Of a stretch of DNA of 64,000 nucleotides, positions 1,781 through 63,008 are shown piece by piece. This stretch comes from Pirellulales bacterium (GTDB taxonomy: Bacteria; Planctomycetota; Planctomycetia; Pirellulales; JADZDJ01), in contig OY970289.1 in the NCBI GenBank assembly GCA_963716135.1, positions 3,593,207-3,657,206 of the forward strand. Direction: 5' to 3'. A program made the position numbers and the translations under genes. Each line of letters opens with the position of its first letter. Position 1 is the stretch's first letter. Under the pieces are notes generated by a model. It saw nothing but the letters and a program-made list of their open reading frames with translations, did not search any database and had not been told where the DNA came from.

Positions 1781-1843
1781 GTCAGGAGTCAGGAGTCAGG
1801 AGTCAGGGGTCAGATGGCGGAGGGGGGAAGGCGGAAGGCGGAA
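1781..1843. repeat. Tandem heptamer arrays: GTCAGGA x4.7, then GGCGGAR x4
   Basis: Read directly: gtcagga gtcagga gtcagga gtcaggg gtcag at ggcggag gggggaa ggcggaa ggcggaa. It begins 3 nt upstream of the acpS ATG (minus strand) and covers the stop of the upstream gene. Confidence 0.9.
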
Positions 1844-2366
1844 GTTCGGAACGGGACCGAGTTGCCGAAAACCAGGCTGCAACGGCCATAGATGCCACGA
1901 TAGTCAACGTGGCGTTAATTATCCACCAGAGCCAGTTGGGCATGGCATCGGGTGTGATTCGTATCGGGGCCTGATCGCGAAGGAACTCCAGGAACGTCGG
2001 CGCGGGCACTCCGCCGGCCGCTTGAACGAGCTGCAGTTTAGGATCGCGCTGGGCGGCTTCCGCGATTTTGATCCGATATTCGACGTACACCAGCAGATGC
2101 TCGCTGGCCACGCACACCAGCGCCATAGTTATGGTGGCGATCAGCACGGCGGCGCGGCTGGAAATATTGGTGCGCATCGCCAGAAACGAAACCACCAACC
2201 CCAAGGCCGCCCCCAGAACAATCGGCGACAGGGCGGAAACATATCCCTCGCGCTCCATCCAGATCGCAATTCGCGCGAGAACAACGCTGGCCACCAACGA
2301 CGGCACTAACCAAACCAAGAGCGTTGACCATCCTAGAACAATGGGATTGACGGTGCGACGCTGCAT
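1803..2366 (-). CDS. Hypothetical integral membrane protein
   Basis: ORF 1803..2534 frame taken from the internal ATG 2366 ([35 protein letters not shown]..). It has several hydrophobic helices. The upstream ORF part overlaps trpS. The last ~15 codons ([15 protein letters not shown]) are read from the tandem array. Confidence 0.6.
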
Positions 2367-2374
2367 GGCCGAGG

Positions 2375-3336
2375 TCACTTGATTCCACACGCTTTCTGCG
2401 CCGGGCCAGCACTTCGGCGGCTTTTTTGCGGGCGCGGCCGGCGCCGTCGGCGAGGATGGCTCGAATTTTATCGGGGCTGGCGGCGAATTCGGCGCGGCGA
2501 GCGCGGGGCTCGGCGAAGAATTTTTCGGCGGCATCGGCCAGGGCTTTTTTCACTTCACCGTAGCCGAAGCCGCCGCGGCGGTAGAGGGCGGCCATTTCGT
2601 CGCGCTCGTGCGGCGTCGCCACGAGCGAGAACAACTGAAATAGATGGTCTTGATCCGGCTCTTTGGCCTGTTCCATGGGGCGCGAGTCGGTGACGATGCG
2701 CATGATCTTCTTGCGCTGGGCCTTGGGATCGTCGAACACTTCCAGCGTGTTGTTGTAGCTTTTCGACATCTTTTCGCCGTCGAGGCCGGGAACTTTCGCT
2801 GTTTGCTCGAGCACCTTGGCCTTGGGCATGATGAATGTCTGGCCGAAGTGATGATTGAAACTGGCGGCCAGGTCGCGGCAGACTTCGATGTGCTGCACCT
2901 GGTCGGCGCCGACCGGCACGGTGTCGGAATCGTAGGCCAGGATGTCGGCGGCCATGAGCACCGGATAGGTGAACAATCCGGCGTCGGCCGGGAGGCCTTT
3001 GGCGATTTTGTCTTTGTAGGCGTGGCAGCGTTCCAGCAGTCCCATTGGAGCGCCGGACATAAGGAGCCAACACAATTGGGTGACTTCGGGCACGTCGGAC
3101 TGAACGAACAGGATCGCCTTTTCCGGGTTGAGCCCAAGGGCGAGCAGGTCGATTGCCGCATCGAGCGTGAGCTGCCGCAATTGCTCGGGATCGCGGATGG
3201 TCGTCAGCGCGTGCAGGTTGGCGATGAAGTAGTAGGCGGCGTCTTCATGCTGCAGATCGATGTATTGGCGGATCGCGCCGAAATAATTTCCCCAGTGGAA
3301 GCGGCCGGTCGGTTGAATGCCGGAGAGGACGCGCAT
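2375..3336 (-). CDS. trpS: Tryptophan--tRNA ligase with an apparent frameshift near 2396-2409
   Basis: Class-I signatures [11 protein letters not shown] and KMSKS are present. ORF 2038..3336 runs about 100 codons past a normal TrpRS end and overlaps the next gene. Changing frame near 2400 gives ..[13 protein letters not shown]-stop at 2375. The 962-nt length is not a multiple of 3. Confidence 0.85.
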
Positions 3337-3346
3337 AGGCGGGGGA

Positions 3347-3377
3347 GTGAGTGGTGACGGGTGAGTGGTGACGGGTG
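3347..3377. repeat. Tandem 14-mer (GTGAGTG GTGACGG) x2.2
   Basis: gtgagtggtgacgg gtgagtggtgacgg gtg, located 11 nt upstream of the trpS ATG at 3336 (minus strand). Confidence 0.85.
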
Positions 3378-3464
3378 CAGCTTACACCAGCGGGGCGCAA
3401 AAACAAACGCCGTGCGGCACGGGCCGGCACGGCGTTAAGACAGATTTCGATCGACGTGGTTCGA

Positions 3465-3681
3465 CTACAAAATGCCGCCGTAGGTGCGATACGGGGTCAT
3501 GTTGGATGGCATGTCGAGGAACCAGATCCGCTCCCATTCATCGAGCGCTTGGCGCAGGTTTTCCGACGTGAACAGCAATTGCTGCGTTCGGCGCGGGATC
3601 GGCCGAGTACATGGGGATCAGACAACCGATGGAGCTGGACAACATCAGTCCTGCCATCGTTGTCAGCAGTAGCCTGCGCAT
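3465..3681 (-). CDS. Small putative lipoprotein with an apparent frameshift near 3588-3597
   Basis: ATG 3681 gives MRRLLLTTMAGLMLSSSIGC, a signal peptide with a lipobox-like Cys. The in-frame stop comes after 47 codons. Shifting frame continues ..RTQQLLFTSENLRQALDEWERIWFLDMPSNMTPYRTYGGIL to TAG 3465. Confidence 0.5.
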
Positions 3682-61112: not shown

Positions 61113-61356
61113 GGAACATCACCGTGGAAACAGCGGAAATTTGCCGCGGGCCGATCGCCGCCGGCGGCGAAAGACCATTTTAGCGCAAGAGCGAACCCTC
61201 GCGCAGCAGCGAAATCTGGTTTCTTACGGCGAGTCCAAACGAGCCAAACACGCCACGATCGTGGCAACAGCGTCCGGTTCGACAAGCCTTTTGCGGACGC
61301 AAGGCCGGGGTATGTACCGCTTTCGGCGGATCCAAGCAAGCGGAGTTTTGGAAAAA

Positions 61357-61462
61357 GGCAGAATGCAGAAAGCAGAATGCAGAAGAGGAAAAGTGGTTGG
61401 CGGCCTTGCGCTTACGGTTGACGATCCAGATTTCTGCCTTCTGCTGTCTGCCTTCTGCCTTC
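61357..61462. repeat. Inverted pair of GCAGAAN / TTCTGCN heptamer arrays
   Basis: ggcagaa tgcagaa agcagaa tgcagaa gagg, a 43-nt spacer, then ttctgcc ttctgct gtctgcc ttctgcc ttc. It sits inside the 800-bp gene-poor gap upstream of rsmH. Confidence 0.9.
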
Positions 61463-61734
61463 ATGGTCGGCATCCAAGGGCGGAGCACATCCTTGCTGCC
61501 CCGTGTGCCCTTGGAAACCGGTAGCCGTCGAGTCGTTTAACGGGCCGACTGCGGCTGCTATCGCCCATCGACGTCCATGCCGATGGTTGGGTTGCAAGAG
61601 AGCATCGCTCAGCCCGTGGCCGACGGCTGAGGCCAATGCTTCGACTTGCAAAACCGCTTGATAAGATCGCGTTGAAAAAGAGCAGGCGATTTCCGATCGA
61701 TCGCCGCCCGATATTGCCCCGCGACGGTCGTCAT
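61463..61734 (-). pseudogene. mraZ: Possible degraded or truncated mraZ remnant upstream of rsmH
   Basis: ATG 61734 gives MTTVAGQYRAAIDRKS.., with the G-x6-D-x-K spacing seen at the MraZ N-terminus (E. coli MFRGATLVNLDSKGR). After a stop, another frame gives ..CSLATQPSAW.., matching the C-to-W spacing of CLLLYPLPEW. At least two frame changes are needed, and the 3' part runs into the heptamer array. Evidence is weak. Confidence 0.3.
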
Positions 61735-61915
61735 CGTCAAGCGGTGTTTTTGTGGGAAACGAGTGCCAAACGAAATCATTGCAATACGTCGGACAACTCT
61801 GTGCTAGCAACGCGTAAAATATTTGCGGACGTTTGCGATTTGTGAACACCCGTTCATACACCTTGGGGACTACTGGATTGCGGCTAGAATGGGCCAACCT
61901 GAAAGCTGCCTCGCT

Positions 61916-62980
61916 ATGGACTCAACACTCCCATTGACTTCAGAACTCGAACAATACAACTACGATTTGCCCAAGCATCTCATCGCGCAAGAGCCATTGG
62001 CCAATCGTGCCGATGCGCGGCTGATGATCGTGAATCGCCGGCAGGGCACGCTCGCCCATCATCACGTCCGTGATCTTCCTGAACTATTGCGCCGCGGCGA
62101 CCAGCTTGTGCTGAACGACACCAAAGTGATTCCCGCCCGCCTGGTCGGCCTGCGCGACACGGGCGGTCGCTGGGAAGGCCTGTTCCTTTCGCAGGAGTCC
62201 AGCGGCGCGTGGCAACTTTTGTGCAAGGTGCGCGGGAAGCTGACGGCGGGAGAAACGATTCAATTGCTCGATCCGCTGGCGAGCGAGGACACGCAGCTCC
62301 GTCTGGTGGCTAAATCGGAGCAGGGGGTCTGGCTGGCGCGCCCGGTATCCGAAGAGCCCCCCATGAAGATCTTGGAGCGCATCGGCCGCGTGCCGCTTCC
62401 CAAGTACATCCGCAAAGGCGAAATGGTCGATGCCGACCGCCAGCGATATCAAACCGTCTTCGCTCGCCACGCCGGTTCCGCGGCCGCCCCTACCGCCGGT
62501 TTGCACTTCACCACGGAACTTTTCGCGCGCTTGCAAGCCGCCGGCATCGACGTGGCGAAGGTCACGCTGCACGTGGGTCTGGATACGTTTGTGCCGATCC
62601 GATCGCAGAAACTGGCCGGCCACAAAATGCACAGCGAATGGGGGCGCATCGACGAAGTCACTGTCGAGAACCTAACTCGCGCTCGCAAAGAGGGCGGACG
62701 GATCGTCGCCGTGGGCACCACCACGGTACGCGTGCTGGAATCCGCCGCCGCCGACGGCGTGCTCCGCCCGTGGGAAGGTCAAACCCAACTTTTCATCCGC
62801 CCGCCGTACCGCTTCCGCGCCATCGACGCCTTGATGACGAATTTCCACCTGCCGCGCACGACGCTGTTGATTTTGGCGCGCACCTTCGGCGGCGACCCGT
62901 TGATCCGCCATGCCTACGCCGAAGCCATCCGCCAGGAATACCGCTTTTACAGCTATGGCGATGCAATGCTCGTGATTTGA
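61916..62980 (+). CDS. queA: S-adenosylmethionine:tRNA ribosyltransferase-isomerase
   Basis: ..YNYDLPKHLIAQEPL..RLMIV..LVLNDTKVIPARL..AAPTAGLHFT..VGTTTVRVLES..MTNFHLPRTTLL..FYSYGDAMLV. The start could be 61916 or 61889. Confidence 0.92.
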   Translation: MDSTLPLTSELEQYNYDLPKHLIAQEPLANRADARLMIVNRRQGTLAHHHVRDLPELLRRGDQLVLNDTKVIPARLVGLRDTGGRWEGLFLSQESSGAWQLLCKVRGKLTAGETIQLLDPLASEDTQLRLVAKSEQGVWLARPVSEEPPMKILERIGRVPLPKYIRKGEMVDADRQRYQTVFARHAGSAAAPTAGLHFTTELFARLQAAGIDVAKVTLHVGLDTFVPIRSQKLAGHKMHSEWGRIDEVTVENLTRARKEGGRIVAVGTTTVRVLESAAADGVLRPWEGQTQLFIRPPYRFRAIDALMTNFHLPRTTLLILARTFGGDPLIRHAYAEAIRQEYRFYSYGDAMLVI

Positions 62981-62983
62981 GGG

Positions 62984-63008
62984 TCGAGAGACGAGGGGCG
63001 AGAGAGGA
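62984..63008. repeat. Short heptamer array NCGAGRG x3.5
   Basis: tcgagag acgaggg gcgagag aggag, 4 nt after the queA stop. Confidence 0.5.

Follow-up and report, generated by a model that had tools for sequence, protein, structure and literature searches.

Short tandem arrays of 7-8-nucleotide (nt) units lie between the genes of a 64-kb stretch of DNA from a soil bacterium of the Pirellulales (contig OY970289.1), and this whole stretch is called the window here. The arrays are heptanucleotide, sometimes octanucleotide, simple sequence repeats (SSRs) of the kind known as short tandemly repeated repetitive sequences (STRRs) or 'heptameric SSRs', a class already known. One Pirellulales lineage has them, as have many contigs of tailed phages, and in the phage data their polarity follows the transcript, not replication: purine-rich arrays come just past stop codons and pyrimidine-rich arrays just ahead of start codons. 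Having established the anatomy, orientation, predicted folding, turnover and distribution of the arrays, we propose that they are slippage-prone, transcribed punctuation between cistrons that would act at the RNA level, a reading to which we give a probability of about 0.42. Among the roles listed in the original prediction, a description of the arrays made from the letters of the window, intercistronic RNA structure or processing and slippage-prone spacers are the leading candidates. That prediction had missed two points: the four inverted pairs with long hairpins, and the rule that purine follows the stop and pyrimidine precedes the start.

Tandem Repeats Finder (TRF) was run on the window, together with our own periodicity detector, which covered periods 3-16 and used Markov shuffles as the null. 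TRF found arrays of period 7, 8 or 14 at 1781-1813, 1816-1844, 3347-3377, 6491-6525, 7524-7556, 7571-7600, 8265-8301, 11441-11475, 14070-14102, 14120-14149, 38571-38608, 48833-48853, 50048-50077, 50103-50145, 61358-61384, 61432-61462 and 62979-63009, with low scores at 7524-7556, 48833-48853 and 62979-63009, and it reports an array at every coordinate given in the original prediction. Our detector counted eight arrays of period 7, three of period 8 and five of period 14 in the window. Each of the remaining periods gave 0-1 array, and the Markov shuffles gave ~0.05 per period. The observation behind the original prediction is confirmed and statistically robust. The detector and the list of units also bear out the claim that a constant 7-8-nt format is filled with varying units. 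The units themselves recur: 23 pairs are at most one mismatch apart in any rotation and on either strand (null mean 3.1, null maximum 12, 2000 trials), GCAGAAR forms six arrays at five loci of the window, and GTCAGGR is found at two loci (1781 and 11391), as had been predicted for both. Strong purine/pyrimidine asymmetry is seen in 69% of single arrays, compared with 45% for a random heptamer (binomial estimate).

In 161 kb of host sequence, arrays of three, four and five copies number 8, 8 and 5 (0.4, 0 and 0 in shuffles), and arrays of six to eight copies are absent. Two-copy cases of period 7 show no excess, with 14 observed and 18.4 expected. The arrays form a narrow size class of ~21-38 nt without visible two-copy precursors. 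The weak two-unit case noted earlier at 26225-26238 (no strand assigned) does contain two copies, but by this count it is indistinguishable from chance. All arrays of the window lie between Pfam-supported genes or overlap their last codons only. The earlier statement that they sit exactly at gene boundaries holds for most loci but is overstated, because in short spacers the array is itself the spacer and relatives have 2-9-nt gaps or ATGA overlaps there; furthermore, one pair (61357-61462) lies inside a divergent spacer of ~700 nt.

Single arrays ahead of start codons are pyrimidine-rich and G-poor in the mRNA sense (UCCUGAC, CCGUCACCACUCAC, CUUCUGC, CCUCUUCA). They end 0-15 nt upstream of the ATG with no Shine-Dalgarno (SD) motif in between, which confirms the CU-rich, SD-free sense strand described before, and SD motifs are rare before the ATGs of the window. 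These single arrays are predicted to be unstructured, with a minimum free energy (MFE) of 0 to -7 kcal/mol, no better than shuffles. Every ATG-abutting array in the host operon is pyrimidine-rich in sense (~26 cases in four genomes, 0 purine-rich, by a junction-table count). Inverted pairs of arrays are found at four loci (11391-11475, 14070-14149, 50048-50147 and 61357-61462), and each is predicted to fold into a hairpin (~27-34 pairs, -40 to -59 kcal/mol, z -4 to -6). Read along the transcript, the pairs begin with the purine-rich arm, which lies at the upstream stop or overlaps it, and continue with the pyrimidine-rich arm, 10-38 nt before the next ATG. The purine arm is entered by the upstream open reading frames (ORFs) moaE, DUF309 and ORF 11413-11928.

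Between co-directional genes, predicted stems of this length agree with the definition of an RNase III site, namely a double-stranded RNA stem of at least ~20 bp in a polycistronic transcript. A GC-rich hairpin followed directly by a U-tract, as expected for a canonical terminator, is a different matter: only the pair at 61357-61462 has U5 (minus strand) and the other three pairs have no U-tract, which rules out canonical terminators for three of the four. Nor do the array hairpins represent the default terminator, since canonical ones with a GC hairpin and a U-tract are present elsewhere in the region (BI1-DUF309 and HU-tyrS spacers). We also rejected a G-quadruplex explanation, as for Xanthomonas, since most units have no GGG run; at least four such runs per array would be expected, and GCAGAAG, GTCAGGA, AATGACC, GGAATCA and TGAAGAGG contain none. 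Stop codons in three frames were likewise rejected as the purpose of the 7-nt period, as GCAGAAG and AATGCAG have no stop on either strand by inspection. An Rfam scan of the window at the gathering threshold gave no match anywhere, and a tRNA scan of the window gave none.

The polarity was quantified with viral contigs. A scan of IMG/VR for (GCAGAAN)4 gave 44 loci (L007-L050, 423 kb) with 219 period-7 arrays, and terminase, portal and major head proteins were identified on several of these loci with PHROGs. The gene caller used for the phage sets was crude (based on GC content at third codon positions, with stop-to-stop ORFs), so distances to start codons are approximate. Among 115 well-placed arrays between co-directional genes, a few of which come from host loci and the rest from phage contigs, purine-rich arrays begin at a median of 7 nt past the stop and pyrimidine-rich arrays end at a median of 16 nt ahead of the start (odds ratio 8.6, p=1.3e-5), and the association is significant for plus-strand and minus-strand genes separately. 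A second, independent set of 85 loci (L131-L215), found with other units, gave medians of 7 and 16.5 nt (odds ratio 4.1, p=0.008). Many junctions in phage head-gene operons have the layout stop, array, optionally loop and second array, then ATG. Whole hairpin modules with conserved loops occur at 4-6 junctions in two contigs: L028 carries ~6 copies of the module GTCGAGA...CCAGCNNGCTGGCGC...CCTTCGA, and L032 carries ~4 copies of AATGCAG...AATGAAAGAGTTTTGATTCTGC...CTTTCACCCC, each with a conserved loop.

We note that tailed-phage contigs with terminase, portal and major head genes (e.g. L021, L026-L028, L032 and L039) have an array every ~2-3 kb, and that each array-rich phage contig has its own dominant unit or units. 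GCAGAAN was considered as a special universal motif and rejected, since scrambled units also form viral arrays (28 and 6 loci, compared with 44 for GCAGAAN) and GTCAGGN forms them at 52 loci. The preference for units in viral contigs is unequal but not exclusive.

The window was compared with four relatives (L001, L004, L002 and L005). Around 10.9-12.0 kb, DNA identity to the window is ~95-100% for L001, 85-98% for L004 and 53-83% for L002, and L001 aligns to the first 17 kb at 85-94%. At eight array-bearing junctions of the window, L001 lacks the array at four, has another unit at two, another copy number at one and a nearly identical array at one. Where relatives have no array, the genes abut or overlap (an ATGA overlap or a 2-9-nt spacer), and some junctions that are tight in the window contain arrays in L002. 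Arrays are gained, lost or replaced between genomes that are 87-97% identical in DNA. Comparing orthologous junctions, which the original prediction had proposed, showed that unit, length, sequence and copy number vary at retained positions and that complete presence/absence differences are also common. New junction inserts contain non-repeat sequence too (41 nt at 8302-8341, and the hairpin loops), and complete inserts of 76-78 nt are found where relatives have an ATGA overlap or a 2-nt gap. The window has 11 arrays in 64 kb, L001-L005 have 9 in 97 kb, and queA-bearing metagenome contigs, whose taxonomy is unassigned, have 9 in 780 kb. The latter 780 kb show no excess at period 7, and a presence of the arrays in all planctomycetes is not supported. 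L003, a 7-kb fragment of an Illumina metagenome-assembled genome, has no arrays.

These features can be joined into a mechanism at the RNA level. The arrays would slip readily and turn over fast, and would persist only in transcribed spacers, that is, in 5' untranslated regions (UTRs) and intercistronic gaps. A single array may be sufficiently purine-only or pyrimidine-only to prevent folding, and a pyrimidine-rich, G-poor array 0-15 nt before an ATG would give ~21-38 nt of open, SD-free mRNA, which is about the stretch that a 30S subunit covers upstream of the start codon. Such an array could serve SD-independent initiation as a tract for standby or loading, probably via ribosomal protein S1 or another protein with an oligonucleotide-binding (OB) fold. 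Where a purine-rich copy at the upstream stop pairs with a pyrimidine-rich copy at the next start, a hairpin of the predicted length would form with two possible effects: downstream initiation would depend on the upstream ribosome unwinding it (translational coupling), or RNase III would cleave it, as at the intercistronic sites of phage T7 and the heptamer hairpin in the Haemophilus hmw 5'-UTR. We infer that the arrays are transcribed, that ribosomes or S1 bind them, and that the hairpins serve coupling or are cleaved by RNase III. Polarity, length class and strand asymmetry would all follow from punctuation of this kind, as would the order of purine before pyrimidine, the lack of SD motifs and the occurrence in phage operons.

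Ribosome standby sites are unstructured tracts near a start that let the 30S subunit load without an SD motif, and they are known as individual leaders, not as a genome-wide repeat family. Phage T7 has RNase III sites between its early genes, and these are not made of tandem repeats. In planctomycetes, the share of SD-led genes is reported to be small, and genes without SD reportedly start via S1 or by leaderless routes (PMC5397173); a link between the window arrays and standby sites or S1-dependent leaders would rest on this role of S1 in non-SD initiation (PMC5397173).

Several observations weigh against the punctuation reading. It leaves the period of 7 unexplained. All arrays upstream of an ATG in the host region are on genes of one strand, so that the orientations of transcription and replication are separable by the phage data alone, and these data include 18 cases in which a purine-rich array lies directly before the ATG, which makes pyrimidine before the start a tendency and not a law. 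Single junctions can do without an array, since genomes 87-97% identical have overlapping or abutting genes instead. The hairpin at 11391-11475 has no compensatory pairs, and its flanks are equally conserved, so it is not an island of conservation. Some units contain ATG (AATGCAG), which would be awkward for a loading or scanning tract. The first unit of the 5' arm is also usually all that a ribosome paused at the stop would reach.

A bolder form of the punctuation reading would make the arrays an SD-replacing system of the Pirellulales lineage, and possibly of its phages, with the pyrimidine array as an S1 or OB-fold loading site and the purine array as an antisense lid. The 3-5 units would then match RNA-binding domains or the 30S footprint, and a terminating ribosome would open the lid and give programmable coupling. 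The 7-nt period would be the size of an OB-fold binding site, not a quirk of replication, and phages would copy the code of their host. Taken jointly, these claims are a long shot.

The strongest rival to RNA-level punctuation holds that the arrays are functionless by-products of a lineage-specific bias of slippage or template switching for 7-8-nt units, and that selection filters only their place and orientation. For example, C-rich naked RNA past a stop would attract Rho, and ribosomes would be put in the wrong place if G-rich, SD-like repeats stood before a start. The speed with which arrays come, go and change in copy number or unit between genomes 87-97% identical, the dispensability of arrays at orthologous junctions, the lineage-specific density (11 per 64 kb against 9 per 780 kb of the taxonomically unassigned queA-bearing contigs), the many different units in phage contigs and the conserved hairpin without covariation all fit this account, as does the attribution of heptamer over-representation across bacteria to polymerase slippage (PMC4692102). 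We nevertheless consider it less likely than punctuation, since gradual slippage in place would predict a two-copy excess and a less sharp window than 3-5 copies, and new junction inserts include non-repetitive sequence. Recurrence of units within a genome far above chance, the high density in compact phage structural operons and the strong purine/pyrimidine asymmetry also speak against it. The absence of two-copy precursors would suit small mobile or copy-pasted modules that resemble miniature inverted-repeat transposable elements (MITEs) or REPINs, hairpins built from repetitive extragenic palindromic (REP) sequences; these would be spread by a transposase or by recombination, with the heptamers as binding or target repeats. 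Modules with conserved loops and flanks recur in single phage contigs (L028, L032), complete 76-78-nt inserts occupy junctions that are tight in relatives, units are shared by several loci, and an AAAAA flank is found on three of six GCAGAAG-type arrays. This origin is still improbable, as all four host hairpins use different units, single arrays lack an inverted partner, the number of copies varies at fixed sites, target-site duplications are not evident, inspection revealed no REP-type GTAG/CGTC heads, and no transposase or REP-associated tyrosine transposase (RAYT) gene is linked to the arrays, though no genome-wide search was made.

Binding of proteins to DNA is another conceivable source of tandem heptads, which would then be operators, stoperator-like roadblocks or nucleoid-protein sites. 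The orientation of mycobacteriophage stoperators relative to transcription resembles that of the arrays here. Heptameric direct repeats are known as the DNA sites of regulators of the Streptomyces antibiotic regulatory protein (SARP) type (PMC5930380) and at the cholera toxin promoter, and a heptamer-binding factor was postulated in Nostoc (bioRxiv 10.1101/2022.06.06.494920). However, many different binding proteins would be required for the dozen unrelated units found in 64 kb, the arrays flank housekeeping genes of unrelated pathways, and units are replaced at one site between close relatives, and we regard this explanation as quite improbable. Even less probable are contingency (phase-variation) loci, at which the neighbouring gene would be switched or tuned by the number of copies, as happens with the hmw heptamers of Haemophilus (PMC12721329). 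Copy number does differ in relatives (4.7 and ~3.5 for the array at 1781, 4.3 and ~2 for that at 7571), but the neighbours are housekeeping genes (acpS, tyrS, moaA/D/E, the folE operon, lpxA), not surface or host-interaction genes, and copies are confined to 3-5, compared with at least 11 in hmw. An artefact of long-read assembly or polishing might have been suspected from at least three frameshifts relative to L001 (moaA, class V aminotransferase and glcD/F-like genes), which suggest indel errors. It is effectively refuted, because L001 and L004, which are separate assemblies, also contain the arrays at 1781 and 11391-11475, arrays of this kind are abundant in IMG/VR contigs, where their numbers are a thousand-fold larger, and indel errors do not make 30-nt periodic tracts with gene-oriented polarity. 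The persistence of arrays in separate assemblies also answers the artefact concern raised with the original prediction.

The original prediction knew of no described element class with this behaviour, and here it was mistaken: heptamer repeats near starts and stops are known in cyanobacteria, Xanthomonas/Nostoc, Beggiatoaceae and Haemophilus hmw. The window arrays share all the features of heptanucleotide SSRs or STRRs, namely tandem units of at least three copies, confinement to spacers and ORF ends, occurrence at many loci within a restricted lineage, polarity, and variation among relatives. We found no report of such arrays in Planctomycetes in the searchable literature; one survey noted over-represented oligopurine tracts in Isosphaera, and GATAGRA of Chloroflexus is a described heptanucleotide repeat. 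Among the closest known cases are the tandem heptamers of Xanthomonas, (GGGAATC)n, and Nostoc, (GGGGAYT)n, which are ~90% intergenic and typically ~4 units long, like those of the window (Rehm et al. 2015, PMC4692102). Their polarity is also as here, with the G-rich strand non-coding upstream of ORFs and coding just past stops, and they likewise include some inverted pairs, keep their position while length and sequence vary, and have housekeeping neighbours (PMC4692102). The window unit GGAATCA is one base off the Xanthomonas unit GGGAATC. Xanthomonas and Nostoc differ in having one dominant unit per genome with GGG runs able to form G-quadruplexes, whereas the window has a dozen units, mostly without GGG. 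In addition, the window arrays often make up the whole spacer, unlike the Xanthomonas/Nostoc SSRs, and that study covered no phages (PMC4692102).

The TAACTGA repeats of Beggiatoaceae, found also in some Cyanobacteria and Bacteroidetes, are sets of 2-6 tandem heptamers that point to starts, as here (MacGregor 2015, PMC4679880). Their commonest class ends 1 nt before the start, usually with no recognisable ribosome-binding site, and, like the window arrays, some overlap the end of the upstream ORF and they occur in one lineage while missing in close relatives (PMC4679880). A translational role via S1 or cold-shock (Csp)-like proteins was proposed for them (PMC4679880). Unlike the window arrays, they use a single unit genome-wide, include only one inverted repeat and are commonest as two-copy sets, a size with no excess here. 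Cyanobacterial STRRs (Calothrix/Nostoc) and the Nostoc heptamers comprise several heptamer families per genome, lie at most ~30 nt from starts and sometimes overlap them (bioRxiv 10.1101/2022.06.06.494920). The window unit AATGACC/TTGGTCA matches the Nostoc recO heptamer GACCAAT up to rotation and strand. It also matches STRR2, the unit of which, TTGGTCA, equals AATGACC up to rotation and strand. Cyanobacterial arrays differ in that they can be much longer and belong to genomes low in GC, and polarity and hairpin pairing are not among the features described for the cyanobacterial heptamers in the portion of that source available.

The Haemophilus influenzae hmw 5'-UTR contains transcribed, pyrimidine-rich heptamers, (ATCTTTC)n, that pair with a purine-rich, G-rich arm, and RNase III cuts the hairpin (PMC12721329); a change in repeat number needs both transcription and the hairpin (PMC12721329). 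In contrast to this single contingency locus with at least 11 repeats and control of an adhesin, the window has many loci with 3-5 repeats at housekeeping genes. Contingency SSRs lie in the promoter, 5' region or ORF of surface or host-interaction genes and span a wide range of copy numbers, a definition that does not fit arrays that neighbour acpS, tyrS, moaADE, the aminotransferase gene, lpxA and similar genes and are confined to 3-5 copies. REP/REPIN elements resemble the window arrays as lineage-specific intergenic hairpins past stops or between cistrons, with roles in mRNA stabilisation or processing (PMC3733652). The REPs of a genome, however, comprise a single conserved palindrome or a few of them, with GTAG/CGTC heads and a RAYT transposase, none of which was seen in the 64 kb of the window; each of the four host hairpins has a unit unrelated to the others and, by inspection, no GTAG/CGTC head.

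Start- and stop-adjacent heptamers were first noted 35 years ago in cyanobacteria, followed later by Xanthomonas and Beggiatoa, and have no accepted function. The present case adds a fourth, unrelated phylum and hundreds of arrays in real phage structural operons. It also constrains any explanation in four ways: the transcript-oriented polarity is replicated in independent data sets, the size is fixed at 3-5 units without two-copy precursors, the arrays frequently pair into predicted hairpins of ~27-34 pairs with the purine arm always 5', and genomes 87-97% identical in DNA differ by the gain, loss or replacement of whole modules. Loading or coupling devices, if that is what the arrays are, would explain translation in high-GC bacteria with few SD motifs and provide compact parts for planctomycete engineering. 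If they are only filtered mutational debris, they would still reveal a strong lineage-specific bias to 7-nt template switching. Shared unit repertoires could also help to assign phages to hosts.

The individual arrays of the window are as follows, and the earlier claim that they abut start and stop codons stood when the genes were checked with Pfam. On the minus strand, (UCCUGAC)x4.7 in the mRNA sense (1781-1813; TRF) ends 2 nt before the acpS ATG (1778; Pfam ACPS); it is predicted to be unstructured, with an MFE of 0, and 3-4 copies are found at the matching site in L001 and L004. Immediately upstream of it on the same strand lies (UUCCGCC)x4 (1816-1844; TRF), which is missing in L001, where unrelated sequence is found instead. 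A 14-nt unit made of two heptamers, CCGUCACCACUCAC, is repeated 2.2 times at 3347-3377 (minus; TRF), 10 nt before the tyrS ATG (3336; Pfam tRNA-synt_1b) and downstream of a conserved -10-like box, TGTAAGCT; L001 has another unit at this site (CTCGCCC), and L004 has no array. At 5289-5325 (minus), which was earlier listed as an array, the polypyrimidine tract in the mRNA sense is real, but its tandem nature is weak: TRF gives an 8-nt periodicity with 63% matches and a score of 32, and our detector missed it. The tract fills the 49-nt spacer from the stop of the class V aminotransferase gene (5329) to the ATG of the CxxCxxCC gene (5279), and the L001 spacer there is 3 nt.

Further along the same strand, (CUUCUGC)x4.7 at 6494-6526 (TRF, Pfam) lies between the moaA stop (6532) and the aminotransferase ATG (6487), 6 nt from the ATG; its MFE is -2.7, the L001 spacer is 6 nt, and L004 and L002 carry other pyrimidine-rich arrays. 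A weak CACAGUU/CAUUGUU array (7524-7556, minus; TRF score 31) ends 7 nt before the moaA ATG (7516), and L004 is similar at this junction while L001 and L002 have other units. The array (GGCAGAA)x4.3 at 7571-7600 (minus; TRF) is purine-rich in the mRNA sense and, by translation, codes for the last residues of moaE (stop 7568). Pfam MoaE spans residues 4-115 only, and the tail ...AEGRMQKAE comes from the array, so that moaE, like ORF 11413-11928, reads into an array as the original prediction had it; L001 has ~2 copies. At 8265-8301 (minus; TRF), (CCUCUUCA)x4.6 touches the moaD ATG (8265; Pfam ThiS), and an ATGA stop/start overlap replaces the array in L001, L004, L002 and L005.

The inverted pair at 11391-11475 (minus) lies between ORF 11413-11928 and the glcD/F-like ATG (11375), with a purine-rich 5' arm of GGAAUCA/GGAGUCA and a pyrimidine-rich 3' arm of CCUGAAU/CCUGACC (predicted hairpin -49.4 kcal/mol, z -4.2). 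The pair is kept in L001 and L004, and ORF 11413-11928 reads through the 5' arm and the loop. The pair AAUGACC ... UCAUUGG at 14070-14149 (minus; -40.1 kcal/mol, z -6.2) lies between the DUF309 stop (14138, within the 5' arm) and the ATG of a gene with a Lon-N domain (14059); L001 and L004 have a 2-nt spacer here, and L002 has a different array pair. Between the convergent stops of the nfo-like (plus) and Nramp (minus) genes, the gap is filled by (AAGGCAG)x5.4 (38571-38608, no strand assigned; TRF, Pfam), which touches the nfo-like stop (38571). Also without an assigned strand, (GCAGAAG)x3 at 48833-48853 (TRF score 35, Pfam) lies between the likely end of an ABC ATPase gene (plus) and the stop of a GFO/IDH/MocA oxidoreductase gene (48870, minus); the end of the ATPase gene was deduced because its ORF continues as a shadow of the minus-strand gene. 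The pair at 50048-50147 (minus) has 8-nt units, GAAGAGGA ... UCUUCUCC, and lies between the lpxA stop (50175) and the GFO ATG (50009; Pfam), with a predicted hairpin of -58.9 kcal/mol and z -4.4.

An inverted pair of GCAGAAR units (61357-61462, no strand assigned; predicted hairpin -47.1 kcal/mol, z -5.5, followed by U5 on the minus strand) lies in the divergent spacer between rsmH (minus) and queA (plus). No Pfam-supported ORF is found at 61357-61462, and the pair is not at a verified boundary of a coding sequence. The mraZ gene usually precedes rsmH, and the divergent region of ~700 nt (61113-61822) contains no Pfam-supported ORF and no mraZ. On the plus strand, a 14-nt unit, GAGGGGCGAGAGAC, which is purine-rich in sense, is repeated 2.2 times at 62979-63009 (TRF score 48); it begins at the queA stop (Pfam Queuosine_synth), and the next ATG is 64 nt further on.

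Two observations concern the GCAGAAG-type arrays. Three of the six have an AAAAA flank on the purine strand (6488-6493, 48828-48832 and 61352-61356), that is, U5 after the array on the other strand, which hints at a common origin or a terminator-like tail. The arrays at 6494-6526 and 7571-7600 flank moaA and are complementary on one transcript, at 26 of 27 positions by eye, and could pair across ~1 kb.

A flanking FAD-oxidase/CCG gene places the window in Pirellulales (Planctomycetota). The genes next to the arrays are, by Pfam, ordinary housekeeping ones: acpS, tyrS, HU, the CxxCxxCC protein, class V aminotransferase, moaA, moaE, moaD, the glcD/F-like oxidase, folE, the Lon-N domain protein, DUF309, the nfo-like endonuclease, Nramp, the ABC ATPase, the GFO/IDH/MocA oxidoreductase, lpxA, rsmH and queA. 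The aminotransferase, moaA and glcD/F-like genes (5329-6487, 6532-7516 and 8342-11375, minus) each consist of two overlapping ORFs in different frames. The pieces lie in one frame in L001, which suggests indel errors of long-read assembly, or real pseudogenes.

The spacers contain further elements. Between HU and tyrS (~3400-3700, minus) there is a small ORF with a lipoprotein-like signal (MRRLLLTTMAGLMLSSSIGC...) that is conserved in L001 and L004, and the order in this spacer is lipoprotein-like ORF, canonical terminator of GC hairpin and U-tract (~3409-3445), conserved TGTAAGCT box and tyrS array. The BI1/DUF309 spacer (14558-14675) contains a canonical terminator followed by CATATAAT, and because the latter is only 9 nt before the DUF309 ATG, the sequence suggests that the DUF309 mRNA may be nearly leaderless. 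The L002 spacer has gained a long pyrimidine-rich array (CACCTATT..., CTGAACC), inserted between the TATAAT box and the start codon. L001 has an insert of ~500 nt between moaD and moaE (13273-13775 in L001) with an ORF for a small signal-peptide-like protein, at a place where the window spacer is 14 nt. Finally, an 18-nt repeat with a 6-nt sub-period, GTCATCGTCCTTGTCTTT, is found at 41050-41089 within ORF 40213-41535 (minus), and it is probably a coding repeat that is not related to the heptamer arrays.

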